Shown here one piece after another: positions 1 to 59,909 of a stretch of 64,000 nt of DNA. The stretch's first letter is position 1; every line of letters begins with the position of its first letter. The stretch lies in assembly GCF_003018255.1 (NCBI RefSeq), contig NZ_CP027440.1. The stretch is one strand, 5' to 3'. Under the pieces are notes generated by a model. It was not told the origin of the DNA and ran no database searches. It saw only the letters and a program-made list of their open reading frames with translations. The position numbers and the translations under genes are program-made. The stretch is from Escherichia coli (GTDB lineage: Bacteria; Pseudomonadota; Gammaproteobacteria; Enterobacterales; Enterobacteriaceae).

Positions 1-891
1 AGAATGCACTTTCGTTGCGTCAAACTGTGTAGTTGCGCAGAATTTTTTCACGCGCACAGAGCTGACAGCGTATTTTTTGCCCGTAATTTTGCTCAGGATA
101 TCAAAACAATATCCACCCAGCATTCCTAGTGGGTAAGGCAAGTGCATAGAAGGGATCTTTTTGTTCAGGCTTTGTTCAACTTCAGCAACCAACTGGTTCA
201 TGTTCAGGTCTGGCTTATCAACGTAGTTATAAACCTCATAACCTGCGGCAACATTCTTCAGTTTGTACTTGATAAACTCAACAATGTTTCCAACATAAGC
301 CATGGACTTATAGTTAGTCCCTGCTCCCACCATCATAAACTTGCCGCCAGCGATCTGTTTCAGCAAGTTATAGACGTTACCGCGGTTGCGTTCACCGAAG
401 ATAACGGTAGGACGGATGATAGTTAATGAACGTTCTGATGGTGCTTTGTTATACCATTCACGCAGCACTTCCTCCGCCTGCCACTTACTTTTGCCGTAGT
501 GGTTGAAAGGGTCGTGTGGATGGTTTTCGTCAGGGTTGTGTTTGTTCAAACCATAAACAGCAACGGAACTGGTAAAGATGATATTTTTAACGCCATTTTT
601 TTCCATGGCCGCCAGCACATTGCGGGTACCCTGAACATTGACATCATAATAGAGAGAAGTAGGGCTGACGTCATCGCGGTGTTCCGCTGCCAGTAGCACA
701 ACAGTGTCAAAACCGGCTAACGCCTGGTCGAGTGCCTGTTGATCACGAACATCGCCAATCTGTGTGATTTCTGGATAAAAGTGGCTCTGCTGTTTGTCCA
801 GGTTCTTGATATTAAAGTCAGCAATTGCCGTTTCAAGTAGTCGGGTTCCTACGAATCCGGAAGCTCCTATGAGCAAAACGTTATCGTTCAT
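1..891 (-). CDS. gne: NAD-dependent sugar epimerase (SDR family), probably UDP-GlcNAc/GalNAc 4-epimerase Gne; 3' end cut by window edge
   Basis: Minus-strand ORF starting at ATG 889-891 (MNDNVLLIGASGFVGTRL...) with Rossmann GxSGxxG motif; runs off the window start. Position next to wcaM matches recalled gne location in GalNAc-containing O-serotypes. Confidence 0.6.
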   Translation of the reverse strand, partial: MNDNVLLIGASGFVGTRLLETAIADFNIKNLDKQQSHFYPEITQIGDVRDQQALDQALAGFDTVVLLAAEHRDDVSPTSLYYDVNVQGTRNVLAAMEKNGVKNIIFTSSVAVYGLNKHNPDENHPHDPFNHYGKSKWQAEEVLREWYNKAPSERSLTIIRPTVIFGERNRGNVYNLLKQIAGGKFMMVGAGTNYKSMAYVGNIVEFIKYKLKNVAAGYEVYNYVDKPDLNMNQLVAEVEQSLNKKIPSMHLPYPLGMLGGYCFDILSKITGKKYAVSSVRVKKFCATTQFDATKVHS

Positions 892-1048
892 AAATCACTT
901 TAGTCTGGTTGTTACGTAAGAAACACAAGATAAAGATGAGTACCTTCCCTGAGTAGTCAATGCTGCCCAGCCCCAGCTTTAACAGTTAGTGTGAGGATTA
1001 TAATCTTTTAGAACATTATATCCAGTAAGTTTATGAATGGTCGCAAAT

Positions 1049-2443
1049 CTACTCCCTCCGTTCCGGCAATCTAAAGTTAATCTTTTCCACATTAACAATA
1101 TGGTGATTAATCCTGTCGATATCGACAGAGCTTTGTCCTTTTTCATTCACCGCATGAACATTTGCAAGAGACAGGAGTGTTTCTTTTTTCGCCATAAAGA
1201 CACCTCGTACGTCTTTGCGCATGTCGAAGTTCATGCTCAGTGCGGGTCCAACAGTGGATTCCTGCATCACATTGATATTTCGCATAAAAAGATGTTGCGG
1301 TTTATTGTGAAGCTCCAGCGACGCACGCTTCATCTCAATGTTAGTCAGCGCCACAAAGGAGACAGCATTCCCGGCAGAGATTTGGATGCCGCGCAATTTA
1401 TAAGCAAGGTAGGTGTTATCCAGTTGAATATTATTCACCCGGAAATTCTGCGGTATCGAGAGATATTTGCCTTTAATTACCCCATAACCGATTAACATCC
1501 CGGCGCTATTAATCATTTCAATATTATCAATCACGAAATTGTCACAACCGTAAATAGCGACTGTCGCGTTATCAATGCCTGCTTTCTTACTGAAATCCGG
1601 TGTGATATTGCGGGCCTTGATATTACGAATAACAAAATGTTTACCATTTTCAACATGGATCAGTTGCCGACAATCCGATCCCGTGATATTCGCCACGACA
1701 AAGTTTTTCACTGCCTGGTTTTCCGGATAATTATTATCGTAGGTACTTCCCGCAAGGCCTATGCCGATGCCCCAGTTGATTTTGCCGTTGGTACAGTTAA
1801 TGCGCTCAATGAGATGGTCGGATATCAAAATATCACTGTCGTTAATCGCCACGTTCCATTCAATAGCGTCGCCCTGTAAGTCGCTGAACTTACAGTTGGT
1901 GATGTTGGCACCGATTATCTGGTTATGAAATCCCTGGCGTAAGATGGCGTAATTAGCGTGGCTAACGTTCAGGTTATCGATGGTCAGGTTACGCATGACC
2001 CGTTTGTTTTTGCCGCCGATATAAATCTGCGTTACCGGGCCAAAGCCGCTCATCGCAAGCCCTTTGATGGTGCAGTCAGAGCCGCGCACATCCAGGGTGA
2101 TGTTATGCATACTGCCGCCCTCCTCCCCTGTCACCTGGCTGCCGTCCTGTAAGACAAATCGCCCTCTGCCATTGCCGCGCAAGCTTCCAAGGATGTGTAA
2201 CGTTTTGCCAGGAGGAATGAAGATGCCGGTGTTGATATTGTCACAAACGAATCCAGCAGGCACGACGATCGTTCGCCCTTCGCTGAAGGCTTGTTTAAAT
2301 GAGGCGATCCAGTCGTGTGGGTTGTAGTCGTTAATGTTAACGCTTTGTCGGGCGGGAAGTGCGCGAGCGAAAGGGGTATGGAGGAAGGCAAGCGCCGAGC
2401 TTGCCGTCAGGAAGGTGCGTCGGGAGAGTTTTTTAAATGGCAT
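1049..2443 (-). CDS. wcaM: colanic acid biosynthesis protein WcaM
   Basis: 464 aa ORF with Tat-like signal ([15 protein letters not shown]); last gene of cps cluster in expected position. Confidence 0.9.
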
Positions 2444-2453
2444 GCGTTCTCCT

Positions 2454-3674
2454 CTATAAAGCTTGCAGCAAGCTGGCGAGTTCTCGATTGATCACCTGCT
2501 GGTTAAAATCGTGTTCGACTTTTTCGCGAGCACGTTTGATAACCGGAGCCAGTTCGTCGGTGTCCAGTTGGCTAAACGCCGCCAGTCGTTGCGCCAGTGC
2601 GCGAGCATCGTTCTCAGGCACCAGCCAGCCGGATTTATCGGCCTCCACCAGTTCCGGTATTCCGCTATGCAGAGTAGAAACCACCGGAATGCCGACCGCC
2701 ATCGCTTCCATTAGTGCCACCGGAATACCTTCCATATCGCCGTCCGCACCTGTAACCGATGGCAACAGGAAGACATCCGCGTCGTCGAGCATCGCCTTCA
2801 CTTCATGGCTCGGTTTAAAGCCCGGCATCTCTATCACATCTTCCAGTTGATATTGTTCGATGAGGGTGCGCAGGCGTCGTTCCCACGGGCCAATGCCGAG
2901 GATGCGATAGCGAAATGCCACGCCCTGCTCTTTCAACTGACGGCAGGCTTCGATCGCCACATGCAGGCCTTTTTTCTCGGTTAAGCGTGCGACGGAAATG
3001 ATTTCCAGCGGTATTGCGGGCGCTTTCACCGGACGCGGGCTAAAGCGCGTCATGTCCACGCCCATGCGCGATACAGCGATTTTTTCCCTCGGGCAGCCCA
3101 TTTTTTGCAGCCTCCCGGCCCACAGATCGCTTATCGGTAGCATCAGGTCGCCACGGCGGAACAGTTGCTGATATTCGGGAGTGTAGTGGTTGAGCACTTC
3201 CCGACTGGAGATATCAATACCGTGGAAGATAGTGGCAATTTTGCCGCGAATGATACCCAGTTCGCGTAGTTTTGCTGCGGTTACCCCCGCCGGGCCAAAA
3301 TGAGCGATAAAGACATCGGCATAAAATGGTGTTGCGACCTGACCACAAATGGCAGACAAAATCAGGTTCCGCGACTCGGCACCATAGCGTTTGAGGTTGA
3401 GCGCCTGCCAGGTATTTTTACGATGAATGCCGCGTAAGGTCTGGCTGGCGCGGTGGCGCAGCTTCGCCACTTTGCCCGTAGGTTCGTCCTGTAACCAGCG
3501 GGTTCTGGCGGCAAGGTTGTATTTCGTCCATGCCGCGTGGGTGTTCTCTGTATCGCCTTTTTGCAGCGCGACAATCTCCACCTCAAAGCCCATATCAATA
3601 AACGCAGTGATTTGGTTGAGGACGAAGGTTTCCGACGACAACGGAAATTTCAGTAAAAAGAAGCCGACCTTCAT
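2454..3674 (-). CDS. wcaL: colanic acid glycosyltransferase WcaL
   Basis: 406 aa ORF, GT4-type glycosyltransferase; 4-bp overlap with wcaK stop. Confidence 0.9.
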
Positions 3675-4951
3675 TTCGCCTCCCCGATGCGCTCAAGCAC
3701 TGACTGCACCATCTGCATTCCTGTCTGACGCTCACGACTGACGGCTTCACTAAGTCGCGCATTCAGCGCCGGAAGCTGGCCTAAGGTATCCGCAACCATC
3801 GCTTGCAGGCTGCCGTCCAGTAAATGACGGATATCAATTGCCATCTCTGGTAGCCCCAGTTGTTGCATAATCCCGGCGGATTTATGTTCATAGTTGATGG
3901 CAATCGCCGGAGTGGCAAAGTTCATCGAGATAATGGCAGAGTGCAAGCGCGTACCGACGGTGAGTTCACAGGCCCCCAGAATTTTGCCCATTTCCAGATC
4001 ATTGAGTTCATCCATCACTACGTGGTAACGGGCAGGATCGCTGATGTGCTGGCGCAGGTTGAGCGCCACCATGCGGTCGTCTTTGTTATAGCTGTCGATG
4101 CCCGTACAGGTGGAAAGCGCAATCACCTGATAGCCTTCGTCGAGAATGCGATTGACCACCCCGGCAAAGGCTTTTTCATACGCTTGCTGAGTGGTGCCGA
4201 GACGTTTGTCGAACGGTGCCAGTTCGCGCAGGGTAATTGCCACCGTTTTCTGTTGTGCGGCAACGTCCAGCCAGTGTTGAACAGCATAGCTGGCGGTGAA
4301 GTCTTCAATGTGGTGATCGACCAGCCACGCGGTATCGACGCCATGTTCAACTTTTGCAGTGGTGATATTGCTGCGTTTCATCAAATCAAGGCTGACCGAT
4401 TCGCGCAGGATCAGCGCGTCGCAGTGACCAAAGACATAGTTCGCCAGTTGGTTAAATTGCTCATCCTGGAAGGGGCCGACGCTGTGACCAATCATAAACA
4501 GCGGCTTTTTCGCCATGAAAGTGCAAAGCGCATGTTCAAACTGCGGCACGCCATAGAGATCGACAAAAAACGATCCGCCGACCTGAATAATGGCGTCGTA
4601 ACCTGACAGCAGTCGCACGAAGTCAGTGAATCCCTGGGCGATGGCGATATTACGCAGCTTGCCAGTGTCGGTGACGCGTGAGAGCAATACCTGGTGCTGG
4701 TAGCGGCGACGGAGGACTTTTTTAACGCGCCCAACAACGCCCGCCGCGCTGTTGTGTTGTTTCATTTGCAGGAACAGCGGGTCGCCCATTACCGGGCGGT
4801 TGAGCAGCCAGGAAGAACTGACCGGATAGCGGCTCATCACGTCCACTTCGGCATGTGGATTGAGGATGTTGATGGCATCAAGTAAGCCACGCAGGATGGC
4901 GCTATCGCCACGATTGCCGCAAGTGTGGTTGCCCAGAATAAGTAATTTCAT
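3671..4951 (-). CDS. wcaK: colanic acid pyruvyl transferase WcaK
   Basis: 426 aa ORF (MKLLILGNHTCGNRGDSAIL...), polysaccharide pyruvyl transferase family. Confidence 0.9.
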   Translation of the reverse strand: MKLLILGNHTCGNRGDSAILRGLLDAINILNPHAEVDVMSRYPVSSSWLLNRPVMGDPLFLQMKQHNSAAGVVGRVKKVLRRRYQHQVLLSRVTDTGKLRNIAIAQGFTDFVRLLSGYDAIIQVGGSFFVDLYGVPQFEHALCTFMAKKPLFMIGHSVGPFQDEQFNQLANYVFGHCDALILRESVSLDLMKRSNITTAKVEHGVDTAWLVDHHIEDFTASYAVQHWLDVAAQQKTVAITLRELAPFDKRLGTTQQAYEKAFAGVVNRILDEGYQVIALSTCTGIDSYNKDDRMVALNLRQHISDPARYHVVMDELNDLEMGKILGACELTVGTRLHSAIISMNFATPAIAINYEHKSAGIMQQLGLPEMAIDIRHLLDGSLQAMVADTLGQLPALNARLSEAVSRERQTGMQMVQSVLERIGEAK

Positions 4952-4974
4952 TTTTTCCTCATAAATTTGATGCC

Positions 4975-5605
4975 AGGTGAGGCTGTGTTTGTTGTGTTCG
5001 TTGCCGTTTTTTGCCTGATGCGACGCTAACGCGTCTTATCAGACCTACAAGTCCCGAGCACAGAACCGTAGGCCGGATAAGGCGTTCACGCCGCATCCGG
5101 CATTCAGTGCCTGATGCGACGCTGACGCGTCTTATCAGGCCTACAAGATCCGAGCACAGAACCGTAGGACGGATAAGGCGTTCACGCCGCATCCGGCATT
5201 CAGTGCCTGATGCGACGCTGACGCGTCTTATCAGGCCTACAAGATCCGAGCACAGAACCGTAGGACGGATAAGGCGTTCACGCCGCATCCGGCATTCAGT
5301 GCCTGATGCGACGCTGACGCGTCTTATCAGGCCTACAAGACCCGAGCACAGAGCCGTAGGACGGATAAGGCGTTTTACGCCGCATCCGGCATTCAGTGCC
5401 TGATGCGACGCTGACGCGTCTTATCAGGCCTACAAGATCCGAGCACAGAACCGTAGGCCGGATAAGGCGTTCACGCCGCATCCGGCATTCAGTGCCTGAT
5501 GCGACGCTGGCGCGTCTTATCAGGCCTACAAGATCCAAGCCCAGCCCCCCAGGACGGATAAGGCGTTTTACGCCGCATCCGGCAACCGTTGCCGGAACCG
5601 AAAAC
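4975..5605. repeat. REP/BIME array, about six tandem ~98-bp units of paired inverted REP elements
   Basis: Motif gcctgatgcgacgctgacgcgtcttatcaggcctacaag...ggataaggcgttcacgccgcatccggc recurs at ~5004, 5110, 5208, 5300, 5398, 5494. Confidence 0.9.
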
Positions 5606-5611
5606 AACCAT

Positions 5612-7090
5612 TCACCCCGCCCGTAAAAGCATTTTCATTTTTTCGCTGCGACAAAACTGACGCTTCACTTCCACCACCAGCGGATGGCGTGACAGCACAA
5701 TCATCACCACAAACGCCAGCACGCCTGCGGCTATTTGCACCGCCAGCAGCATCCCCAGCGCCAGTTGCCCTTTCAGCACAATGCCCAGCGCATAACTGAC
5801 CCCCAGTGTCGGCAACGAGAGATAAAACGGCAGCCACAAACTCAGGATGTACTGGCGATAACTGGAACCAAGAACCGGTTTAATCATCACGAAGTAACTC
5901 AGAATGGTGTTGATAATCTGCACCAGCAGGAAACCGAGCGTGACGCCGATTGCGCCCGCCATCTGCCCACCAATAACAATCGCCGGAATAAACAGAAATG
6001 TTTTGAATACGTTGAATTTAAAGCTGATATCGACCCGCGCTTTCGCCATCAGCAGCGAACCAATCGGGTTACCCACCGAACGCAGCAGTCCCACCACACA
6101 CAGCAATTGCAGCACCGGAATAATGCTGTTCCACTTCTCACCAAAGACCAGCGGTACAAAGTTATTCGACACCACCATCAGCCCCAGCAGCGCCGGAAAG
6201 TTGATAATCCCCACCACCGACAGCAGCTTGTAGAAGTTGACGCGCAGCTTTTCGGTGTCGTCCTGAATTTTGGCAAATGCCGGAAACAACACGCGGGTGA
6301 TGATTGGGTTCAGCTTCATCGGCGGCACAACGGCCACGTTGTACGCCAGGTTGTATCCCCCTGCCACGCCCGCGCCGAGAATACGCGCCAGCACCAGCGT
6401 TGAAAGGTTAGTGTTGAGATAGTTGATGATGCTGTCCGCCGTCAGCCAGGCACCAAAGCGTAAGTTCGGTGCCACCGACGCCAGCGAGAAATGCAGACCG
6501 GGGCGATAAATTTTGCGACCAAAGTAGCCAAACAGCAGCGTTCTCACCGCACTATTGACCAGATAACCGAGGATCGCAGTCATCGCCAGCGGCCAGAAAT
6601 GGGCGCTAACCACCGTAAAAGTGAAGCCCGCCAGCACCGCGCTGGTTTCGATCATGCCGATTTTGTTGAACTCCAGCTCCTTCTGCATCAACGCGCGGAA
6701 CTGTTGCCCGTGGGGGATTACCACAAACGCCAGCGACAATGTTTTAATCAACGGTGCCAGGTCCGGGTTGTTCAGCACGTCACCAATGAGATCACTCAAC
6801 AAAAACACCGCCACACACACCACAAGCCCCAGCCCGACGTTTAGCCAGTACAGCGTGGTGAGTTCAAGGTGGCTGATTTCTTTTCGCTGAATAATCGAGT
6901 TAGCGATACCGAAGTCAGAAAGCGTATCTGCCAGCGCGATAATCACCAGCGACACGGTAAGCAGGCCGAACTGGTGGTTGTCGATAATCCGCGCCAGCAC
7001 GGTCATCTGCACCAGCCCAAGGCCGATGATGATCACCGTGGCAATCGCCGACCACTTCGCGCCGCTGATGGTTTTTTCACGTAAGCTCAT
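5612..7090 (-). CDS. wzxC: colanic acid repeat-unit flippase WzxC
   Basis: 492 aa polytopic membrane ORF (MSLREKTISGAKWSA...). Confidence 0.9.
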   Translation of the reverse strand: MSLREKTISGAKWSAIATVIIIGLGLVQMTVLARIIDNHQFGLLTVSLVIIALADTLSDFGIANSIIQRKEISHLELTTLYWLNVGLGLVVCVAVFLLSDLIGDVLNNPDLAPLIKTLSLAFVVIPHGQQFRALMQKELEFNKIGMIETSAVLAGFTFTVVSAHFWPLAMTAILGYLVNSAVRTLLFGYFGRKIYRPGLHFSLASVAPNLRFGAWLTADSIINYLNTNLSTLVLARILGAGVAGGYNLAYNVAVVPPMKLNPIITRVLFPAFAKIQDDTEKLRVNFYKLLSVVGIINFPALLGLMVVSNNFVPLVFGEKWNSIIPVLQLLCVVGLLRSVGNPIGSLLMAKARVDISFKFNVFKTFLFIPAIVIGGQMAGAIGVTLGFLLVQIINTILSYFVMIKPVLGSSYRQYILSLWLPFYLSLPTLGVSYALGIVLKGQLALGMLLAVQIAAGVLAFVVMIVLSRHPLVVEVKRQFCRSEKMKMLLRAG

Positions 7091-7091
7091 A

Positions 7092-8486
7092 TCAATATGC
7101 CGCTTTGTTAACGAAACCTTTGAATACCGTCAGGAAAACGATTTTGATATCGAACCAGACGCTCCATTCGCGGATGTACTCAAGGTCGAACTCGACGCGT
7201 TTTTCCATTTTCTCCAGTGTGTCGGTTTCGCCGCGCCAGCCGTTAATCTGCGCCCAGCCGGTAATGCCCGGTTTCACTTTATGGCGCAGCATGTAGCCTT
7301 CAATGAGCTGGCGATACTGTTCGTTATGCGCCACCGCGTGCGGACGTGGCCCGACAATCGACATCCCGCCAGTCAGCACATTGATAAACTGCGGCAATTC
7401 ATCCAGCGAGGTGCGGCGCAGAAAGTTCCCCACTTTGGTGACGCGCGGATCGTTCTGCGTCGCCTGGGTCACCACTTTGTCGTTCTCCATCACTTTCATG
7501 GAACGGAACTTCCACACTTTGATCGGCTTGCCGTCCATGCCGTAGCGAGTCTGGCGGAAAATAACCGGCCCCGGTGAGCTCAGTTTCACCGCCAGCGCAA
7601 TGCAGCACAGCACCGGGGAGATCAGCAGCAGGATAAGCGTCGCCAGCACAATATCTTCCGCACGTTTGAGCAGGCGGTTAACCCCGGAAAGCGGCGTGTC
7701 ATACAGCGGCACCACCGGAACGCCGTTCATCTCTTCGAGACGTGAATGGAGAATGTTGAAGGTAAAGACATCGGGGATCAGCAGCACCGAACAGGTGGTA
7801 TCCGCCAGTTGATGGACCAGTTTTTTCACTCGCGCGCCGTCGCACATTTGCATTGCGATATAGACGTTATGAATCTTGCCCGCTTTCGCATCCTCGACCA
7901 GCTGTTGCAGATTGCCCGCCCAGTCGTTAGAAACGCCGCCCGGTTTCGGGTCGTGGTAAACGCCCACCACTTCAAACCCTAACCACGGCTGATTACGGAA
8001 GCTCTCCATCAGCATTTGTCCGGCGGCTAAATCTCCCGCTACGGCGACCATGCGCTTGTTATAGCCATGATTACGCAGCCAGCCCGCCCCAATGCGAATA
8101 CACGAACGGCAAACCACCAGTCCGATGCTGGTCAGCCCATACCACGCCAGCCAGATTTTCAGTTGCGTGTCGAAATCATTGTTGAACGCCACCAGCCCGG
8201 CGCTGAAAATCACGCTTAACGTCCAGTTTTGTAGCAGCAGGGCAAATTCTGTCGCTGCCCGAACACCGCGCCATGAGCGATAAAAATCGGTGATGCCGCC
8301 CAGCATCTGGAACACCACCAGCGTAATCAGCGCCACCAACAGGTGCATGTAGAGGAATGACAGTCCGCTGACTTCGCAAACCAGCCATAGCCCGGCAAAC
8401 ATGATGGTGATATCTGAAAAGCGTTGCACCATAGAGATTAACGATGCATTGGTTTTCGCTCGCTCGCGCTTTTTTAGATTTGTCAT
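7092..8486 (-). CDS. wcaJ: undecaprenyl-phosphate glucose-1-phosphate transferase WcaJ
   Basis: 464 aa ORF with N-terminal membrane segments and C-terminal sugar-transferase domain. Confidence 0.9.
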   Translation of the reverse strand: MTNLKKRERAKTNASLISMVQRFSDITIMFAGLWLVCEVSGLSFLYMHLLVALITLVVFQMLGGITDFYRSWRGVRAATEFALLLQNWTLSVIFSAGLVAFNNDFDTQLKIWLAWYGLTSIGLVVCRSCIRIGAGWLRNHGYNKRMVAVAGDLAAGQMLMESFRNQPWLGFEVVGVYHDPKPGGVSNDWAGNLQQLVEDAKAGKIHNVYIAMQMCDGARVKKLVHQLADTTCSVLLIPDVFTFNILHSRLEEMNGVPVVPLYDTPLSGVNRLLKRAEDIVLATLILLLISPVLCCIALAVKLSSPGPVIFRQTRYGMDGKPIKVWKFRSMKVMENDKVVTQATQNDPRVTKVGNFLRRTSLDELPQFINVLTGGMSIVGPRPHAVAHNEQYRQLIEGYMLRHKVKPGITGWAQINGWRGETDTLEKMEKRVEFDLEYIREWSVWFDIKIVFLTVFKGFVNKAAY

Positions 8487-8540
8487 CGTTGTTCCTGTTA
8501 TTAGCCCCTTACCCGCAGTGGGGTAAGGGAAGATCCGACA

Positions 8541-9911
8541 TTACTCGTTCAGCAACGTCAGCAGAGTTCGCGTTCGCGCTTCCATCAGCGGCACGTCACC
8601 GCGCGATTCCACATTCAACCGCACCACCGGTTCGGTGTTGGAGGAGCGCAGATTAAAGCGCCAGTCGGCAAAGGTCATACTGATGCCATCGGTGCGATCC
8701 ACCGCCAGCGCCTCACGGCTAAAATGCTGTTCGACGCGGTTAATCGCCTCAACGGGTTGCGCCAGTTTGCTGTTGATCTCACCGCTTGCCGGAAACGCTG
8801 CCATCCGGTCGCGCACCAGTTCGCCCAGCGTTTTTCCTTTCAGGCACACCAGTTCGGCCACCAGCAGCCATGGGATCATGCCGCTGTCGCAGTAAGCAAA
8901 ATCACGGAAGTAATGGTGGGCGCTCATTTCGCCACCGTAGATGGCGTCTTCCTTGCGCATCCGTTCTTTAATAAAGGCGTGTCCGGTTTTCGACATTACC
9001 GGGGTGCCGCCTGCGGCAGTCACCACATCAACGGTGTTCCAGGAGAGACGCGGATCGTGGATGATCTTCGCGCCGGGATTATTTTCGAGGAACGCTTCTG
9101 CCAGCAGGCCGACAATGTAGTAGCCCTCGATAAACTGCCCTTTTTCGTCAAACAGAAAACAGCGGTCAAAATCGCCATCAAAGGCAATGCCCATATCCGC
9201 GCCGTGTTTGATGACCGCATTGCGGGTGTCGTCGCGGCATTCCGGCAGCAGCGGGTTAGGAATTCCGTTGGGGAAATTGCCGTCCGGCGTGTTGTGCACT
9301 TTGATCAATTCCACTGGTGCGCCGAGGGCTTTAAAGCGGGCTTCAATGGCGTCCACCACCGGACCCGCTGCGCCGTTCCCGGAGTTGATCACCAGCTTGA
9401 GCGGCGTGAGGTTTTTGACGTTGATATAACCGAACAGGTGATCAACGTAAGCGTCACGCAGATTGATTTGCTGATAGCGACCGCGTTTGGTTTCATCAAC
9501 GGGAGAGAAGTCGTTGGCTTCTGCCAGACGCTGGACATCGCGCAGTCCGGTATCACCGCTGATCGGGCGAGCCCCTTCGCGCACCAGCTTCATGCCGTTA
9601 TAATCCATCGGATTATGGCTGGCGGTAACTTCAATGCCGCCATCCACGCCGAGATGGAACGTGGCGAAATAGATCTCTTCGGTGCCGGACATACCAATAT
9701 CCAGCACATCGACGCCCGCATCCTGTAAACCTTTCGCCAGCGCCAGTTTTAAGGTTTCGCTGGTGAGGCGGGCATCACCACCTAACACAATGGTTTTCGG
9801 TTTGAGAAATTCGCCATAGGCGCGACCAATGCGCCAGGCGATATCTTCATTCAGTTCTTCGCCTAATTTTCCGCGAATATCATAGGCTTTAAAGCAGGTT
9901 AATTTTTTCAT
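8541..9911 (-). CDS. cpsG: phosphomannomutase CpsG (ManB)
   Basis: ORF 8541-9959; start placed at internal [14 protein letters not shown] giving 456 aa; phosphohexomutase motif TASHNP present. Confidence 0.88.
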
Positions 9912-9999
9912 ATCGTTACCCTTTTTCAGGCAATAGTTGGCCCTGACCGAAGCGGCCAATTTTGTTTTTGTCGTTATTTACATCGCGGTTTCGCATTCA

Positions 10000-10103
<104 letters not shown>

Positions 10104-11540
10104 TTACACCCGTCCGTAGCGATCCGCGAAGCGCACCACATCATCCTCTTCGAGATAAGAGCCGGAGCGCACTTCAATTAAATCGAGCGGAATTTTCCCC
10201 GGGTTTTCCAGGCAATGCGTCGCCCCCAGCGGAATATAAATGGACTCGTTTTCACCAAGGAGTTTGATATCACCGTCGATAGTGACTTTTGCCGTTCCCG
10301 CGACCACTACCCAGTGTTCCGCGCGGTGATGGTGCATCTGTACTGACAAGCCTTCGCCCGGTTTCACGGTGATGCGTTTCACCTGGTAGCGGTCGCCCGC
10401 GTCGATAGAGTCATATTTGCCCCACGGACGATACACTTCGCGATGCACCCGATGCTCATGGCGACCATCGGCTTTGATCTGCTCGACCACTTTTTTCACA
10501 TCCTGCACCGCGTTACGGTCGGCAATCAGCACCGCATCTTTGGTCTGCACCACCACCAGATCTTTCACCCCGACGGTGGTGACCAGGCCAGATTCGGCAT
10601 ACACATAGCTGTTTTCAGTTTTGTGATTAATCACATCGCCGTGGCAAACGTTGCCCTCGGCGGTGTGGGCGCTGATCTCCCATAAAGAGGACCAGGAACC
10701 GACATCGCTCCAGCCCGCATCCATCGGCACCACAACAGCATCTGCCGTACGTTCCATGACTGCGTAATCCACCGACTCTTCCGGGCAGGCGAGAAACGCT
10801 TCTTCATCCACACGAATAAAATCGAGATCCGGATCGATGGCGCTCATCGCTTTTTCACAGGCGTCGAGAATATCCGGGCGATATTTTTTCAGTTCTTCGA
10901 GATAGCGTCCGGCGCGGAACAGAAACATACCGCTGTTCCAGTAATATTCGCCGCTTGCCACATAGGCCTGCGCGGTTTCCAGATTCGGTTTTTCGACAAA
11001 CTGCGCCACTTCAAAGGCCACCGTATCCTGCTCACCCGCAGACACTTCACCGCGACGAATATAGCCATATCCGGTTTCAGGTAGATCCGGCACAATGCCG
11101 AAGGTCACCAGCTTGCCCGCTTCGGCATACGGCATGGCATTACGCACGGCGGTGCGAAAAGCGTCTTCATCGGCAATCACATGATCCGCCGCCAGCACCA
11201 GCATTAATGGGTCGCTCTCCGGGCTATGACGTTTTGCCGCCAGCGCCGCCAGCGCAATGGCAGGTGCAGTGTTACGCCCTGCCGGTTCGAGAATAATATT
11301 CTCGGTGAGTTTGTTCAGTTGACGCAGCTGTTCCGCGACAATAAAGCGGTGCTGCTCATTGCAAATCACCACCGGGCTTTCGCACTCCACGCCGTTCAGG
11401 CGGCAGATGGTGGTTTGCAGCATGGTGAGATCGCCTTTCAGGCATAAAAACTGCTTGGGGTAAAGTACGCGGGAAAGCGGCCATAAGCGGCTACCGGAGC
11501 CACCTGCCATCACAACTGGATAGAGTTTCGACTGCGCCAT
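10104..11540 (-). CDS. cpsB: mannose-1-phosphate guanylyltransferase CpsB (ManC)
   Basis: 478 aa ORF ([24 protein letters not shown]...), nucleotidyltransferase plus C-terminal cupin. Confidence 0.9.
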
Positions 11541-11542
11541 AA

Positions 11543-12766
11543 TTATCCCCGAATATCATTTATAAATTGACGTAACACGTTCTCTTTATCGAGCGTGCGT
11601 TCGGCATATTCACGTGCCACCGTGTTGTGTTTGGGCAGCAGGAGCGCCTGACGAATCCCCGCCACCAGCGCCTCGACCGATTCCGGTTCCACGCAAACCG
11701 CAATGCCCGGAAAGGTTTCGCAAAGCTGTCCCAGTTCGGTGTGGGCTTCTGCGGTAATCACCGCGTTACCGCCTACCGCCAGAATATTGGTCAGTTTCGA
11801 CGGCAATACGGCATCTGCCGCGCCGCGTTTTTGCACCACCAGATGGCAATCGCCCATCTTCAGCAGTGCGGGTAAAGCGTCATACGATTGCAGCGGAAAA
11901 AATTGCATGTTGCGCAGTCCACGCTGCTGCGCCATTTTTTCCAGCCGCGCTTTGCCGCCGCCCTGCCCGACAATGGCAAAAATCAGCGGTTCATCGCGCA
12001 GGCGATCGGCAGCTTCAATAACGTTTTCCAGCCCCTGCTTTTCACCAATATTGCCGGAGTAAAGAATGATTTTTTTGTTATCCGGCAGGCCAAGCTGGTT
12101 ACGAAGGGCATCAACATCGGCATTTGCAACATGCTGAAAACGGGCGATTTCCGACCAGTTGGGGAAGAAGATGACGTTTTCCGCCGCCACGCCTTTTTCG
12201 ATAGCTTTATTCATCATCGAACGCGAAATCGTGGAGACGTTATCGACGTTATGCAGTCCGCTACGTTCGAACGCCGTTGCCAGCTGTGCCACTTTGCCGC
12301 CTTTACCTTTTCCGGCAAGGCCCAGCCCCAGCATGGCGTCCACTTCGTAATCCTGAATATGGAGCACCGTGCGCGCCCCAGAGAGTTTCGCCAGCAGGCG
12401 CATTCCCGGCGTGCAAAACAGCGTTGGCACCACGCCAATAATGCGATCCGGCTGCCAGCGACGTTGCGCCATCAACGGGAAAAAACTGCTGACGGCAAAA
12501 CTGCCGAGATGCAACAGGCGTTTCAGGGTGCTCGGCTGTTTTGGCACGTACAGCGGGCAGCGCCACACCGTGGCGGCCCCCTCTTCTCGTTTGTACCGCC
12601 AGGCGGAATAGTTCTCGCCCACCTGCCATTGCGGGTAGTAAGGCGGTGCGGTAATAACCCGCACCTCATGACCTTGCGCCGCAAGCCATTCCACCATCTC
12701 GCCGGTGTATTTGCCGATGCCGGTTAACTCCGGCGAGTAGTTAATGCCGTAGACCAGTATTTTCAT
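11543..12766 (-). CDS. wcaI: colanic acid glycosyltransferase WcaI
   Basis: 407 aa ORF, GT4 family. Confidence 0.9.
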
Positions 12767-24527: not shown

Positions 24528-24539
24528 CACGCTACCGCC
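24528..24539 (-). promoter_or_regulatory. ops element (GGCGGTAGCGTG) within the JUMPstart sequence of the cps leader; RfaH-dependent antitermination site
   Basis: Plus strand reads cacgctaccgcc, the reverse complement of the ops consensus, about 180 nt upstream of wza start in the long leader. Confidence 0.8.
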
Positions 24540-24787
24540 CCTGGCTTTTTAGCTACCAATACACTGATTTAGCTTAATTTTTAAAACCCTCTCAACATAC
24601 AGTCGTTGATGAGAAAGGGTTATTGCGGAAATTAACTTCCGAATATAAGGTGACATTATGGTAATTGAATATTGGCTCTCCAATAATGCAGGAGGAAGTG
24701 TTACAGCTAACGGAATAGCAGGCAAGGTAACAATTCGGCAATTGGCTATTTTTAAGAATTATATTAAGTGTCATTCAATATGGTTTT

Positions 24788-26665: not shown

Positions 26666-27004
26666 ATGAGAAAAAAGCTGGCTTTTCTTGATACCAGTCT
26701 TGACGATTTACGCGCATTTCCAGAATCGTCTCGACAGGAAATTGGCTATCAACTCGACAGGATCCAACAAGGGTTAAACCCATACGACTGGAAACCTTTT
26801 TCAACTATCGGCCCTGGTGTGCGAGAGATTCGTACTCGCGATGCTGATGGGATCTATCGCGTCATGTATGTCGCAAAATTTGAAGAAGCGGTTTACGTAT
26901 TGCATTGTTTTCAAAAGAAAACACAGACTACCAGTCAATCGAATATTGATTTAGCCAAACGACGCTATAAAGAACTTGTTCAGGAGCGGAAAAATGAAAA
27001 TTGA
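26666..27004 (+). CDS. putative type II toxin, RelE/ParE superfamily (phage Gp49/HigB-like)
   Basis: 112 aa ORF with SD (ggag) and an upstream perfect TATAAT at 26646-26651; small basic protein; overlaps the downstream HTH gene by 11 bp; family assignment from recalled sequence similarity only. Confidence 0.6.
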   Translation: MRKKLAFLDTSLDDLRAFPESSRQEIGYQLDRIQQGLNPYDWKPFSTIGPGVREIRTRDADGIYRVMYVAKFEEAVYVLHCFQKKTQTTSQSNIDLAKRRYKELVQERKNEN

Positions 27005-27284
27005 AACCTTTGATAGTGTGTGGGATGCGGTGAGTGACACCCCTGAACAAGCGGAAAATATGCGGATCCGTGCCGAACTTGTTACGATCATTAATAACTG
27101 GATTGAACAACAAGGGTTTAGCCAGGCTCAGGCAGCGTCTGCTTTAGGGGTCACTCAACCTCGCATATCTGAACTTGCCAGAGGTAAGATCCAGATCTTT
27201 AGTATCGATAAATTGATCACCATGATGGCTCATGCAGGATTGCATATTCAACGTATTGAAGTTCAATATCCACATGCTGCTTAG
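26994..27284 (+). CDS. putative antitoxin, HTH XRE-family DNA-binding protein (HigA-like)
   Basis: 96 aa from ATG 26994 (MKIETFDSVWDAV...), preceded by AGGAG; HTH-like segment FSQAQAASALGVTQPRISELARGK; alternative in-frame start at 26976. Confidence 0.6.
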   Translation: MKIETFDSVWDAVSDTPEQAENMRIRAELVTIINNWIEQQGFSQAQAASALGVTQPRISELARGKIQIFSIDKLITMMAHAGLHIQRIEVQYPHAA

Positions 27285-36616: not shown

Positions 36617-38566
36617 TCAGCAACGGCTTAAATCAGCCTGCGCCTGAGCCAGTTTTTCTGCCGCCTGACGTAGCGGTTCCATCAACGGCATGGTCCGTGC
36701 TGGAGCATGAAGGCGGAATCGCTGCAACTCTGTCGCACCGACATTCAGCGCCGATTCCAGCCGATGTCGTTTGGCGGCCATTTTTGCCATTACCGCTTGT
36801 CTGTCTGCAGGCGTTACCGCTTCGTTCGGCCTGAACACAAAACGGCGTTCACAGCTCGCTTTCCAGTCGATAACCGCCTGGGTCAGATGATCACCAAAAC
36901 CTTTCACTTGCTTAACGCTCCGTCGGGTAACATCCGCTGCTGTTTCAATACCAAAGGACCGTAACGCCGCTTTACGCGCAGGGCCAACGCCGGGAATAGA
37001 GGCAACATCAATAAAAAATCCCTCCAGAAACTTCTGCTTCTGCCGTTCCCTTGCGGTGTCCTGAAGTGCTGCCAGATCGCGCTTTTCTTCTTCCGGTAAC
37101 CCAAGAATTTCGTCCTTCATTTTTTCGAGCATCGTCCGTTTGGCGATAAAACCTTCCAGCCCGCCCAACTGCTGGATCTGGCTGACTAAATGGTCATAGT
37201 CCATTTTCGCGCGATTAAACGCCTCACGGCGTTGCTGGATTTCTGCTTTGTACGCTTTGCTTGTCAGGCTGCCAATAATCCAGATAGCCGCCAGCACAGG
37301 AACCAAAATAATATAACGTGGTTCTGTCTGAAGGCCGCAAAGCAGCAGCGATAACGCTGACAGTGCGATCTCAATCAGAATGATGTATTCACGCCTTAAC
37401 AGGCCTAAAGGAAGCGGCCTGCCAGTCGGTTGGAAATGATCGGGTAATGGTAATTGCAATGCTGGCGGTGCTACTGACGCCATCACCATCGCCCAGACTT
37501 TCGCCAGCACAAAATCACCGCTGGTGGTAATGACCTCTTCGCCGAGATCAATAAAATAGATAACGCCTTGATTATCCAGAGCACACCACGGGCAGTCAGC
37601 CAAATGACCGGGATAAACATGCATTGCCGAAACGGTACATTTCTTTAACTGTTGGCGTAGTAAATCAAGTGCCGCTACCCACGCTTTTGCCGTCGGACGC
37701 CCGGTTGCCACGCCACTTTCCGTGAATGCCTGCTGAAACATGGCTTCAACATCGCCCGGTAACATCGACAGCGGAATAGATCGTGGCGGCGGTTTTAAAC
37801 CACGTCGCTGATTATCTGACGCGTAGGCATAACGGAAATGGGCAATATCCGTCTCCAGTGCATTACCCGCATCAGAGACAAGCGGTACACCGGAATAAGG
37901 ATGCCGCCCACCAAACAAGACGTGAAAAATCAGCAACGCAAGGCCAAAATTATCGTGATTCGCGGTGCGTTCAAAGCCGACAAATGATGGCAAGGTTTGT
38001 TGCTCTGGCGGCGTAAAATGCGACACGCCGACTTCGCATAAATGCAGCGTGCCATTGGCGTTAATCTGAAAGGAGTCGCTATCAATCAACACCACTTTGC
38101 TGTCGCGACCTACCATAAAGCTGTTCTGGTTTACGTCACCCACGACGTGCCCGTGCTCGTGAATCGTAGCAAAAGATGAAGCAATATTGCGCGCAACATA
38201 GAGTAGAAAATCCCACGCACAATGAGGGTAACGTTGACGACGATGTGCCGGGCTATAGATCATATGAATCGGTTCTTTACCAGAAACTTTTGGCATCATA
38301 AAACCGATTACTTTTCCGCCTCGTCCACCGTGAAGCGTTGCCTGCGGCCAGGCGACATAATTCAACAACTGCGCGTCAGCTGTCGCAGCCATAAAGGCAA
38401 GTTTGTCCTGTTTTAAGGCGGGTGGCGGCGTGTGATAAATCTTGGCGACGCTATCGACAAACTCCTCGATATCATAAACCGCGCCTTCACCGCCTTTGCC
38501 CAGTTCACAGCCTGGCGTAACGCACTCACCAGTAGCAGTATATAAAGTGGGTTTCATGGTAACCAC
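36617..38566 (-). CDS. yegI: protein kinase-like protein YegI
   Basis: 649 aa ORF; kinase-like catalytic stretch (HGHVVGDVNQNSFMV, LIDSDSF), central TM segment, C-terminal helix-hairpin-helix-like region; overlaps yegK by 13 bp. Confidence 0.8.
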   Translation of the reverse strand: MVTMKPTLYTATGECVTPGCELGKGGEGAVYDIEEFVDSVAKIYHTPPPALKQDKLAFMAATADAQLLNYVAWPQATLHGGRGGKVIGFMMPKVSGKEPIHMIYSPAHRRQRYPHCAWDFLLYVARNIASSFATIHEHGHVVGDVNQNSFMVGRDSKVVLIDSDSFQINANGTLHLCEVGVSHFTPPEQQTLPSFVGFERTANHDNFGLALLIFHVLFGGRHPYSGVPLVSDAGNALETDIAHFRYAYASDNQRRGLKPPPRSIPLSMLPGDVEAMFQQAFTESGVATGRPTAKAWVAALDLLRQQLKKCTVSAMHVYPGHLADCPWCALDNQGVIYFIDLGEEVITTSGDFVLAKVWAMVMASVAPPALQLPLPDHFQPTGRPLPLGLLRREYIILIEIALSALSLLLCGLQTEPRYIILVPVLAAIWIIGSLTSKAYKAEIQQRREAFNRAKMDYDHLVSQIQQLGGLEGFIAKRTMLEKMKDEILGLPEEEKRDLAALQDTARERQKQKFLEGFFIDVASIPGVGPARKAALRSFGIETAADVTRRSVKQVKGFGDHLTQAVIDWKASCERRFVFRPNEAVTPADRQAVMAKMAAKRHRLESALNVGATELQRFRLHAPARTMPLMEPLRQAAEKLAQAQADLSRC

Positions 38567-39971: not shown

Positions 39972-40152
39972 AAGAAATCCTTTCTTAGAGAATTATTGAG
40001 GCCCGGTATCATACCGACTGCAACAATGAAATAAGAGCAAACGAAGAAACTTTCAGAATTAGGCCCGGCGGCGCAGAAAATTTTGCTATTCGCCTCGCAA
40101 GAACGGAGAGCCGTCGATTGACACTAAGGGCGGAGTGACATAATTTCAGGAG

Positions 40153-40298
40153 TGAGGGTTAGGGAGAGGTTTCCCCCTCCCCCTGGTGTTCTTAGTAAGC
40201 CTGGAAGCTAATCACTAAGAGTATCACCAGTATGATGACGTGCTTCATCATAACCCTTTCCTTATTAAAAGCCCTCTTCTCCGGGAGAGGGTTTCCCG
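40153..40298 (+). ncRNA. sib: Sib antitoxin sRNA, repeat unit 1 (antisense to ibs unit 1)
   Basis: -35 TTGACA (40118-40123), 17-bp spacer, -10 TAATTT (40141-40146); ends at hairpin ccctct...agaggg plus TTTCCCGTTT; ends approximate. Confidence 0.6.
40192..40251 (-). CDS. ibs: Ibs type I toxin peptide, unit 1 (MMKHVIILVILLVISFQAY)
   Basis: 19-codon hydrophobic ORF fully antisense to Sib unit 1; matches recalled Ibs family pattern MMK...LLVISFPAY. Confidence 0.7.
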   Translation of the reverse strand: MMKHVIILVILLVISFQAY

Positions 40299-40487
40299 TT
40301 TCAGCGTCCCGCTGAAATCGTCGGCTTACCTCCTTTCGCCCTGAATGCAGTCTATCGCTAACGCGTGAACAAAATAGTTTCCTCTGTGATTATTGCGTAA
40401 CGACTCGCAAAGAATATTTGCTGGCAGGATCGCAGACTACAAAGCCTGCGGATTGACAATCTTATCGTGAAGGCATAATTTCAGGAG

Positions 40488-40628
40488 TGAGGGTAGAGCG
40501 GGGTTTCCCCCGCCCTGGTAGTCTTAGTAAGCTGGCCAGCTAATAACTAAGAGCACCACGATGATGAGTAGCTTCATCATGACCCTTTCCTTATTTAAGG
40601 CCCCTTCCTCGGGAGGGGCTTTCCCGTT
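40488..40628 (+). ncRNA. sib: Sib antitoxin sRNA, repeat unit 2
   Basis: -35 TTGACA (40453-40458), 17-bp spacer, -10 TAATTT (40476-40481); terminator gccccttcctcgggaggggc plus T-tract. Confidence 0.6.
40524..40580 (-). CDS. ibs: Ibs type I toxin peptide, unit 2 (MMKLLIIVVLLVISWPAY)
   Basis: 18-codon hydrophobic ORF antisense to Sib unit 2. Confidence 0.7.
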   Translation of the reverse strand: MMKLLIIVVLLVISWPAY

Positions 40629-40815
40629 TCAGCGTCCCGCTGAAATCGGCGGCCTACCTCCTTTCGCCATGCAAGCAGTCTATCGCTAACTTGCAGATAA
40701 AATAGTTTCACATGTGATTATTGCGTAACGTCTCGCAAAGAATATTTGCTGGCAGGATCGCAGACTACAAAGCCTGCGGATTGACAATCTAATTGTGAAG
40801 GCATACTTTCAGGAG

Positions 40816-40956
40816 TGAGGGTAGAGCGGGGTTTCCCCCGCCCTGGTAGTCTTAGTAAGCCGGGAAGCTTATGACTAAGAGCACCACGATGATGATCCAC
40901 TTCATCATGACCCTTTCCTTATTTAAGGCCCCTTCCTCGGGAGGGGCTTTCCCGTT
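40816..40956 (+). ncRNA. sib: Sib antitoxin sRNA, repeat unit 3
   Basis: -35 TTGACA (40781-40786), weaker -10 TACTTT (40804-40809); same terminator hairpin as unit 2. Confidence 0.55.
40852..40908 (-). CDS. ibs: Ibs type I toxin peptide, unit 3 (MMKWIIIVVLLVISFPAY)
   Basis: 18-codon hydrophobic ORF antisense to Sib unit 3. Confidence 0.7.
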   Translation of the reverse strand: MMKWIIIVVLLVISFPAY

Positions 40957-41143
40957 TCAGCGTCCCGCTGAAATCATCGGCTTACCTCCTTTCGCCCTGA
41001 ATGCAGTCTATCGCTGACTTGCGGATAAAATAGTTTCACATGTGATTATTGCGTGACGTCTCGCAAAGAATATTTGCTGGCAGGATCGCAGACTGCAAAG
41101 CCTGCGGATTGACAATCGGACCGTGAAGGCATACTTTCAGGAG

Positions 41144-41287
41144 TGAGGGTAGAGCGGGGTTTCCCCCGCCCTGGTAGTCTTAGTAAGCTGGGTAGCTAAC
41201 GACTAAGAGCACCACGATGATGAGTATCTTCATCATGACCCTTTCCTTATTTAAGGCCCCTTCCTCGGGAGGGGCTTGCCCGTTTCA
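41144..41287 (+). ncRNA. sib: Sib antitoxin sRNA, repeat unit 4
   Basis: -35 TTGACA (41109-41114), -10 TACTTT (41132-41137); terminator hairpin followed by an interrupted T-tract (cttgcccgtttc). Confidence 0.5.
41180..41236 (-). CDS. ibs: Ibs type I toxin peptide, unit 4 (MMKILIIVVLLVVSYPAY)
   Basis: 18-codon hydrophobic ORF antisense to Sib unit 4. Confidence 0.7.
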   Translation of the reverse strand: MMKILIIVVLLVVSYPAY

Positions 41288-48962: not shown

Positions 48963-50378
48963 ATGACAGATCTTCCCGACAGCACCCGCTGGCAATTGTG
49001 GATTGTGGCTTTCGGCTTCTTTATGCAGTCGCTGGACACCACCATCGTTAACACCGCGCTTCCCTCAATGGCGCAAAGCCTCGGGGAAAGTCCGTTGCAT
49101 ATGCACATGGTCATTGTCTCTTATGTACTGACCGTGGCGGTGATGCTGCCCGCCAGCGGCTGGCTGGCGGACAAAGTCGGCGTGCGCAATATTTTCTTTA
49201 CCGCCATCGTGCTGTTTACTCTCGGTTCACTGTTTTGCGCGCTTTCCGGCACGCTGAACGAACTGTTGCTGGCACGCGCGTTACAGGGCGTTGGCGGCGC
49301 GATGATGGTGCCGGTCGGCAGGTTGACGGTGATGAAAATCGTACCGCGCGAGCAATATATGGCGGCGATGACCTTTGTCACGCTGCCCGGTCAGATCGGG
49401 CCGCTGCTTGGCCCGGCGCTCGGCGGTCTGCTGGTGGAGTACGCATCGTGGCACTGGATCTTTTTGATCAACATTCCGGTGGGGATTATTGGCGCGATCA
49501 CCACACTGATGTTAATGCCGAACTACACCATGCAGACGCGGCGCTTTGATCTCTCCGGCTTTTTATTGCTGGCGGTTGGCATGGCGGTATTAACCCTGGC
49601 GCTGGACGGCAGTAAAGGTACAGGTTTATCGCCGCTGGCGATTGCTGGCCTGGTCGCAGTTGGCGTGGTGGCACTGGTGCTTTATCTGCTGCACGCCAGA
49701 AATAACAACTGCGCCCTGTTCAGTCTGAAACTGTTCCGTACTCGTACCTTTTCGCTGGGTCTGGCGGGGAGTTTTGCCGGACGTATCGGTAGCGGCATGT
49801 TGCCCTTTATGACGCCGGTTTTCCTACAAATTGGCCTTGGCTTCTCACCGTTTCATGCCGGACTGATGATGATCCCGATGGTGCTCGGCAGCATGGGGAT
49901 GAAGCGAATTGTGGTACAGGTAGTGAATCGCTTTGGTTATCGTCGGGTACTGGTGGCGACCACGCTGGGTCTGTCGCTGGTCACCCTGTTGTTTATGACT
50001 ACTGCTCTGCTGGGCTGGTACTACGTTTTGCCGTTCGTCCTGTTTTTACAAGGGATGGTCAACTCGACCCGTTTCTCCTCCATGAACACCCTGACGCTGA
50101 AAGATCTCCCGGACAATCTGGCGAGCAGCGGCAACAGTCTGCTGTCGATGATTATGCAATTGTCGATGAGTATCGGCGTCACTATCGCCGGGCTGTTGCT
50201 GGGACTTTTTGGTTCACAGCATGTCAGCATCGACAGCGGCACCACACAAACCGTCTTTATGTACACCTGGCTTAGCATGGCGTTGATCATCGCCCTTCCG
50301 GTGTTTGTCTTTGCCAGAGTGCCGAGCGATACGCATCAAAATGTAGCTATTTCACGGCGAAAAAGGAGCGCGCAATGA
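48963..50378 (+). CDS. mdtD: MFS transporter MdtD
   Basis: 471 aa polytopic membrane ORF. Confidence 0.9.
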
Positions 50379-51778
50379 AGTTCTGGCGACCCGGTATTAC
50401 CGGCAAACTGTTTCTGGCGATTTTCGCCACCTGCATTGTCTTGCTGATCAGTATGCACTGGGCGGTGCGTATCAGTTTTGAGCGTGGCTTTATCGATTAC
50501 ATCAAGCATGGTAATGAACAACGGCTGCAAATGCTCGGCGATGCGCTTGGTGAGCAGTACGCCCAGCACGGGAACTGGCGCTTCCTGCGTAATAACGATC
50601 GCTTTGTATTTCAGATCCTACGTTCACTGGAGCATGATAACAACGAAGATAAGCCCGGCCCCGGTATGCCACCACACGGCTGGCGCACGCAATTTTGGGT
50701 GGTTGATCAAAATAATAAAGTGCTGGTTGGCCCGCGAGCACCGGTTCCACCCGACGGCACACGGCGGCCCATTATGGTCAATGGTGCGGAAGTTGGCGCG
50801 GTGATCGCCTCCCCTGTTGAACGACTGACCCGTAATACTGATATCAATTTTGACAGACAACAGCGGCAAACCAGTTGGCTGATTGTGGCTTTATCTACCT
50901 TATTAGCGGCGCTGGCGACATTCCCACTGGCGCGCGGTTTGCTGGCTCCGGTAAAACGACTGGTGGATGGCACGCACAAACTGGCAGCGGGTGATTTCAC
51001 TACTCGCGTAGCCCCCACCAGCGAAGATGAGTTGGGCAGACTGGCAGAGGATTTCAATCAACTCGCCAGCACACTGGAGAAAAACCAGCAGATGCGCCGC
51101 GATTTTATGGCCGATATTTCTCATGAACTGCGCACGCCTTTAGCAGTACTGCGCGGCGAACTGGAAGCCATTCAGGATGGTGTGCGTAAATTCACGCCGG
51201 AGACGCTGGCTTCTTTACAGGCGGAGGTCGGTACACTGACCAAACTGGTTGACGATCTTCATCAGTTGTCGATGTCTGATGAAGGCGCTCTCGCCTATCA
51301 AAAAGCACCGGTAGATTTGATCCCACTGCTGGAAGTGGCGGGCGGCGCATTTCGCGAACGATTTGCCAGCCGTGGCCTGAAACTGCAATTTTCCCTGCCA
51401 GACAGTATTACCGTATTTGGCGATCGCGATCGTTTAATGCAGTTGTTCAATAACTTACTGGAAAACAGCCTGCGCTACACTGACAGCGGCGGCAGCCTGA
51501 AAATCTCTGCCGAGCAGCACGACAAAACGGTGCGCCTGACCTTTGCCGACAGCGCGCCGGGCGTCAGTGACGATCAGCTACAAAAATTGTTTGAACGTTT
51601 TTATCGCACCGAAGGTTCCCGCAACCGTGCCAGCGGCGGTTCCGGGCTGGGACTCGCGATTTGCCTGAACATTGTTGAAGCACATAATGGCCGCATTATT
51701 GCTGCCCATTCGCCTTTTGGCGGGGTAAGCATTACAGTAGAGTTACCGCTGGAACGGGATTTACAGAGAGAAGTATGA
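50375..51778 (+). CDS. baeS: envelope-stress sensor histidine kinase BaeS
   Basis: 467 aa ORF with HAMP region, H-box ([10 protein letters not shown]) and HATPase domain; 4-bp overlap with mdtD. Confidence 0.92.
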
Positions 51779-52497
51779 CCGAGTTACCAATCGACGAAAA
51801 CACACCGCGTATTTTGATCGTGGAAGATGAACCGAAGCTGGGACAGTTGCTCATTGATTATCTGCGTGCCGCGAGCTATGCGCCGACGCTTATCAGCCAC
51901 GGCGATCAGGTACTGCCGTATGTGCGCCAGACACCACCGGATCTGATCCTGTTGGATCTGATGCTCCCTGGCACCGATGGCCTGACGCTGTGCCGGGAAA
52001 TTCGTCGTTTTTCTGACATTCCGATCGTGATGGTGACGGCAAAAATCGAAGAGATCGACCGCCTGCTGGGGCTGGAGATTGGCGCCGATGACTACATCTG
52101 CAAGCCGTACAGCCCACGGGAAGTGGTAGCGCGTGTCAAAACCATTTTGCGCCGTTGTAAACCGCAACGCGAACTTCAGCAACAGGATGCCGAAAGCCCG
52201 TTGATGATCGACGAAGGTCGTTTTCAGGCTTCATGGCGCGGTAAAATGCTTGACCTGACGCCTGCGGAATTTCGTCTGCTGAAAACGCTCTCTCATGAAC
52301 CAGGAAAAGTGTTCTCCCGCGAGCAATTGCTCAATCATCTTTATGACGACTACCGCGTAGTAACCGACCGCACCATCGATAGCCACATTAAAAACCTGCG
52401 CCGCAAGCTGGAATCTCTCGACGCCGAACAGTCATTTATCCGTGCCGTTTACGGTGTCGGTTACCGCTGGGAAGCCGACGCCTGCCGCATCGTTTAG
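51775..52497 (+). CDS. baeR: OmpR-family response regulator BaeR
   Basis: 240 aa ORF with receiver and winged-helix domains; 4-bp overlap with baeS. Confidence 0.92.
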
Positions 52498-52687
52498 TTT
52501 TAGCGACATGACTTTGTTAGCCGGAGATGGCGTTCAGATCAGATCCGGCAACATTATCCCACGTATGGTCAGCAAACTGACATTATCTCTCCGCCCTGGC
52601 AGGCACCAGAAAATCGCTCATACTTTAATCGGTAAACAGCACCTTTAGATGCTGTTTTCGATACGCAATTTCAATCAAGGAGTCATT

Positions 52688-53020
52688 ATGGCTGGTTGGT
52701 TTGAACTCAGTAAGAGCAGTGATAATCAATTCCGGTTTGTGCTAAAAGCGGGCAATGGTGAGACTATCCTCACCAGCGAGCTGTATACCTCAAAAGCCTC
52801 TGCGGAAAAGGGCATCGCGTCGGTGCGTAGCAACAGCCCGCAAGAAGAACGCTATGAGAAAAAAACGGCAAGCAATGGCAAATTCTATTTCAATCTGAAA
52901 GCCGCCAATCATCAAATTATCGGCTCCAGCCAGATGTATGCCACCGCGCAATCTCGTGAAACCGGAATTGCCTCCGTTAAAGCAAATGGCACAAGCCAGA
53001 CGGTGAAAGACAATACGTAA
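52688..53020 (+). CDS. yegP: DUF1508-family protein YegP (two tandem internal repeats)
   Basis: 110 aa from MAGWFELSKSSDNQFRF...; SD aaggag 8 nt upstream; track ORF extends further upstream to 52649. Confidence 0.85.
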   Translation: MAGWFELSKSSDNQFRFVLKAGNGETILTSELYTSKASAEKGIASVRSNSPQEERYEKKTASNGKFYFNLKAANHQIIGSSQMYATAQSRETGIASVKANGTSQTVKDNT

Positions 53021-53167
53021 TTACGATGCCGGGCGCGTGTTGTTGGCGTCCGGCGCTTTACCAGCTCCCCCCTACAGCGCTACAATGCCCGCCCTTAAAG
53101 TGGGGGCACTCCCCTGGCCGCTTCATCAGGTGAAGCGGATCTGACCTGTCATCAGAACGAGAGAATT

Positions 53168-54529: not shown

Positions 54530-54561
54530 TTAATTTCGATTATTTTTCCCGGATGGAAAAT

Positions 54562-54583: not shown

Positions 54584-54613
54584 GCTGCATTTATTAAGGT
54601 TATCATCCGTTTC

Positions 54614-56502: not shown

Positions 56503-56540
56503 TCAAACTATTCTCTCTTGAACCAGGGAGAATCCGTAAT

Positions 56541-59906: not shown

Positions 59907-59909
59907 AGG

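Follow-up and report, generated by a model that had tools for sequence, protein, structure and literature searches.

In Escherichia coli K-12 the last gene of the colanic acid cluster, wcaM, is directly adjoined by galF (b2043 and b2042 in MG1655), with no epimerase gene between the two. In the E. coli DNA analysed here, a stretch of 64,000 nucleotides that we refer to as the window, wcaM is followed by a reading frame of another kind, which runs off the left end. This raises the question of what the gene encodes and what its presence says about the source strain. A first-pass annotation had taken it for a Gne-like sugar epimerase of the SDR family and for the mark of a non-K-12 O-antigen background, and was correct in expecting galF rather than an epimerase at this place in K-12. 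In our analysis the gene is gnu. Both the gene and its arrangement beside wcaM are already known, and it is an ordinary strain marker.

Identity of the gene beside wcaM

The position of the gene is anchored by wcaM (1049-2443, minus strand), a 464-aa reading frame that is annotated as wcaM in the matching genomes and for which an identical protein has the Pfam WcaM match. Immediately downstream, on the same strand, lies gnu (1-891, minus strand; older names gne, Z3206-type), identified as the gene of an UndPP-GlcNAc 4-epimerase from its translation, its identity to ECs_2847, the PGAP product name and Pfam. The frame is stop-free over 297 codons from 891 to 1, with its ATG at 889-891 and a translation that begins MNDNVLLIGASGFVGTRL. 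It is cut by the window edge where it exits at the left end, so that codons 1-297 of 331 are visible and the last 34 are not.

In Pfam the frame matches the Epimerase family (PF01370, E=6.6e-31), with overlapping matches to 3Beta_HSD and other SDR families, and 296 of the 297 visible residues are identical to those of ECs_2847 from E. coli O157:H7 Sakai, which we take to be the orthologue of Z3206 of EDL933. This domain match and these shared residues show that the reading frame is not a chance one. The first-pass annotation thus had the coordinates, the peptide, the neighbour and the SDR epimerase family right. The glycine motif G9-x2-G12-x2-G15 (GxxGxxG), S108/S109 and Y132-GKS-K136 (YxxxK) are intact and align on the corresponding cofactor and catalytic motifs of K-12 GalE. 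An NTP_transferase domain, looked for as a test for GalF, is absent from the frame, to which Pfam assigns SDR/epimerase-type families only. In all matching genomes inspected the PGAP product name is N-acetyl-alpha-D-glucosaminyl-diphospho-ditrans,octacis-undecaprenol 4-epimerase. No NCBIfam model reaches its cut-off (the best, HpnA, reaches 94.7 bits of the 367.65 required), and the family assignment therefore rests on the near-identity to ECs_2847 and not on a curated HMM. A sequence search of the PDB found no close relative, the best match being 8rdg (E=2e-17), with NSDHL and GalE-type chains next; that the PDB copy searched holds no solved structure for the Gnu family is a small gap. The GC content of the visible part of gnu is 45.2%, that of the whole window 52.1%. 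It is very probable that the frame encodes Gnu, an NAD-dependent N-acetyl-alpha-D-glucosaminyl-diphospho-undecaprenol 4-epimerase of the extended SDR type, with the specificity that the literature gives for a 99.7%-identical protein.

The gene beyond the window edge

An exact-protein look-up of the WcaM of the window in public assemblies found a contig (GCA_043013985.1, record ABVVUT010000001.1, locus L010, hereafter L010) that is 100.000% identical to window 1-12443, without mismatch or gap. Leftward it has wcaM, a full-length gnu (331 aa, with stop), galF and an O-antigen cluster, in that order. The full-length product shares 330 of 331 residues with ECs_2847, the sole change being T152S, and the two genes differ at 10 of 996 nucleotides. 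The O157:H7 gene has the same position between wcaM and galF, the same orientation and the same flanking intergenic sequence; here the adjacent cluster is of the O185 family and not that of O157. Codon 152 (window 436-438) encodes Ser in the window and Thr in O157 Sakai, M25631H, 2014C-3338, JNE112863 and MB06172. The substitution is conservative and lies outside the motifs.

From the window alone, in which 297 codons and no stop are seen, the frame might be read as a truncated or decayed remnant. The truncation is that of the window edge, as in L010 the frame continues to the 331-aa product and its stop, and one conservative substitution separates this product from the characterised protein, which leaves a remnant with a negligible probability. 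For the matching lineage, a pseudogene is excluded by the intact full-length gnu of L010.

Gnu and Gne

The name under which the gene was first annotated in 2002 implies a different enzyme, a true Gne, that is, a soluble UDP-GlcNAc/UDP-GalNAc 4-epimerase supplying UDP-GalNAc. The Sakai record still labels ECs_2847 'gne, UDP-galactose 4-epimerase', the fold and motifs of the window protein are those of SDR epimerases, and a hydropathy scan predicts no transmembrane segment (highest 19-residue Kyte-Doolittle mean 1.45), all of which would suit such an enzyme. On the GalE equivalog model TIGR01179, however, the protein reaches 71.8 bits, where the cut-off is 262.3. As a positive control for this model, an epimerase from within an O185-family cluster, that of strain MB06172, reached 440.6 bits; its identity to K-12 GalE is 51% and that to the Gnu of the window only 23%. 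The best sub-threshold neighbours of Gnu also point away from Gne: HpnA, 3Beta_HSD and NSDHL-type enzymes have lipid or sterol substrates, and a lipid-linked substrate for Gnu would be in keeping with this, although the parallel is only suggestive.

The O157 enzyme has been reported to convert UndPP-GlcNAc, the product of WecA, to UndPP-GalNAc and to be inactive on UDP-GlcNAc (Rush et al. 2010, in the account given by Cunneen et al. 2013, PMC3682973). The clade to which it belongs, clade D, has been renamed Gnu by Cunneen et al. (2013, PMC3682973), who reserve Gne for clade A, the GalE-like one. The same role, and a position 'just upstream of galF', have been given for Gnu by Liu et al. (2019, PMC7685785). 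Given the model scores, the low identity to the control and the report that UDP-GlcNAc is not converted, a true Gne is very improbable here. The window protein lies outside the GalE/Gne clade as judged from its sequence, and the first-pass name, Gne (Z3206-type), picked out the right protein but is 'gne-like' only in the historical sense, since the name is now Gnu and the reported substrate is UndPP-GlcNAc and not UDP-GlcNAc. The gene is properly labelled gnu (UndPP-GlcNAc 4-epimerase) in place of gne or galE.

The two groups of enzymes share the extended-SDR fold, the GxxGxxG, Ser and YxxxK motifs, and epimerisation at C4 of a gluco-configured sugar. They differ in that the gene for Gnu lies outside the O-antigen cluster and that the reported substrate of Gnu is lipid-linked, not nucleotide-linked (PMC3682973). 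A more distant relative is the clade D Gnu of Yersinia pseudotuberculosis, which has the same proposed function and whose presence fully correlates with GalNAc as first sugar. It differs from the E. coli O157 protein at about 50% of residues and is encoded inside the O-antigen cluster, in contrast to the galF-linked site in E. coli (Cunneen et al., PMC3682973).

Comparison with K-12

In blastn and in an alignment of the junction, homology to MG1655 sets in again at about 1035, which is 14 bp beyond the wcaM stop codon, and the segment that holds the visible gnu (1-1034) is absent from K-12. Breakpoints mapped between Sakai and K-12 show a 1,364-bp segment, comprising gnu and its flanks, in place of 142 bp of K-12-specific spacer. 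The segment lies between wcaM and galF, and gnu, wcaM and galF all share one direction of transcription. On both sides of the galF-wcaM junction the flanks are collinear with those of MG1655 and 94-95% identical; the difference lies in the junction itself, 142 bp without an epimerase gene in MG1655 versus 1,364 bp in strains that carry gnu. At least 80% of window 1-1100 is present in 1,316 of 5,426 complete E. coli genomes (about 24%), and the arrangement is therefore common. A further 2,890 complete genomes match this region in part, presumably through the end of wcaM.

Over its whole length the window is collinear with MG1655 2113000-2185000 at 95.5-97.6% identity in blastn. This level of identity, together with an extra toxin-antitoxin pair and the absence of PR-X and IS3E, indicates that the source is not K-12; gatC is intact and gnu is present. 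The three further features that had been named in the first-pass annotation as signs of a non-K-12 strain, an intact gatR, the extra toxin-antitoxin pair and the lack of ogrK and yegZ, were all seen.

The individual differences are as follows. Between yegH and asmA the window has an additional 746-bp segment with a toxin-antitoxin pair that K-12 lacks and strain 2014C-3338 also has. The 112-aa toxin is of the Gp49/RelE type (26666-27004), and its frame overlaps that of the antitoxin, an HTH_37 protein of some 96 aa (26994-27284). The cryptic prophage remnant PR-X (ogrK, yegZ; about 580 bp in K-12) is missing at about 54726-54759, next to the cyaR sRNA (Rfam 100.7 bits; within 54612-54759), which is kept. 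Both gatR and gatC are pseudogenes in MG1655, the latter through a frameshift. In the window gatR is an intact 259-aa frame of the DeoR family without IS3E (56584-57363), and gatC is likewise intact (451 aa, within 56584-59906). Four tandem copies of the SIB RNA/ibs type I toxin-antitoxin system are found at 40118-41251, as against two in K-12 (sibA/ibsA and sibB/ibsB). At 38512-38563 yegJ is missing; between yegI and pphC, about 50 bp stand where K-12 has about 786 bp.

O-antigen background

The first-pass annotation had proposed looking for galF and an O-antigen cluster beyond the left edge, and in L010 both are found. The cluster (within L010 12444-21395) encodes a glycosyltransferase, a 201-aa unknown protein, Wzy, a glycosyltransferase, Wzx, a glycosyltransferase and a GalE-type epimerase, and it occupies the place at which K-12 has rfbBDAC (dTDP-rhamnose) and the O16 genes with rfbX, in agreement with the non-K-12 O-antigen background that had been claimed. 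Its identity is 98.4-98.8% to clusters in which PGAP calls wzx and wzy 'O185 family', and this contig allows the source lineage to be assigned to that family. The only statement on the O185 O-unit that we found is that it contains D-Ribf. The lineage of L010 holds both gnu and, at the end of the cluster, a clade-A (GalE/Gne-type) epimerase gene.

The galF-linked gnu has been linked to O-units with GalNAc as first sugar (PMC3682973, PMC7685785), and the first-pass suggestion that the arrangement fits GalNAc-containing O-serotypes agrees with this. In a survey of 115 serogroups, the O-antigen structure agreed in 104 with whether gnu was present, and in 10 cases a gnu or gne gene was present though not predicted (Cunneen et al. 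2013, PMC3682973). It might be proposed that a functional Gnu was merely carried along here by recombination at the galF-linked locus, next to a cluster for an O-unit that starts with GlcNAc. This we consider unlikely, given the generally good match between gene and need in that survey, the reading frame that is intact over 331 codons in L010, and the presence of gnu upstream of galF in all six complete genomes with an O185-family cluster (6 of 5,426). A GalNAc-first O-unit is suggested by gnu beside wcaM, which is a correct marker of a strain that is not K-12. The presence of the gene is a hint on the first sugar and not proof of a GalNAc-initiated O-antigen, and the finding is of little significance beyond annotation.

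Mosaic structure of the region

None of the 5,426 complete E. coli genomes matches the whole window, and the best identity to them varies along it: 99.5% for 1-1100, 98.1% for 1-25000, 100.0% for 25001-50000 and 98.8% for 50001-64000. The 100.0% identity of window 25001-50000 is to JNE112863 and JNE23-011, two Japanese isolates with O146-family clusters in which gnu is present. JNE112863, the strain compared at 10-25 kb, is mostly 99-100% identical there as well, and from about 10 kb to 50 kb the backbone is 99-100% identical to strains of the O146 and O183 families. The genes wcaM, wcaL and wcaK (1100-5000), in contrast, are at most 96.8% identical to any complete genome, while the adjacent gnu reaches 99.5% and is 99-100% identical across lineages. 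The divergence from wcaM to wcaK looks like the recombination flank that is expected beside a switched O-antigen locus. We tentatively suggest, as a possibility that we hold to be somewhat doubtful, that an O185-family O-antigen region was recently imported together with its colanic acid flank from an E. coli lineage that is absent from the complete genomes, and that gnu is a separately conserved module at the junction.

Proposed function

In the pathway that we propose, WecA would make GlcNAc-PP-undecaprenol on the cytoplasmic side of the inner membrane, and Gnu would invert C4 of the lipid-linked GlcNAc to give GalNAc-PP-undecaprenol, as described in the literature for the 99.7%-identical protein. 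By analogy with the hydride transfer of GalE-type enzymes, this would probably proceed by NAD-dependent transient oxidation at C4, through a 4-keto intermediate, followed by re-reduction from the opposite face. GalNAc-PP-undecaprenol may then serve as the acceptor for the glycosyltransferases that build the O-unit, and the O-antigen of this strain presumably makes actual use of Gnu. Since no transmembrane segment is predicted, any membrane association of Gnu would be peripheral.

Neighbouring sequences

The spacer between wcaM and gnu (892-1048) is 157 bp long with 36.9% GC. In a scan of 700-1300 no terminator-like site was found, including after wcaM, and no Rfam family reached its gathering score in window 1-1100. 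Upstream of gnu, on the minus strand, lies a sigma-70 promoter-like match (997-1024; TGGATA-16-TATAAT, 10 of 12 positions), which is a consensus match only; the scan of 700-1300 returned two promoter-like sites against 1.2 expected in shuffled sequences, a number that is not significant alone. Either read-through from the colanic acid operon or initiation at this weak promoter-like site (1024-997) may account for the transcription of gnu.

Further into the colanic acid genes, the gap between wcaK and wzxC (5012-5584) is filled by a tandem REP/BIME-like array of 5.9 copies of a 96-bp unit, longer than that of K-12, in which Rfam calls five copies of naRNA4. The long reading frames across this array (103-130 aa) appear to be artefacts of the repeats. 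An Rfam algC RNA motif is found upstream of cpsG (9916-9965, minus strand) and a JUMPstart element upstream of wza (24528-24566, minus strand), both as expected for the colanic acid operon.
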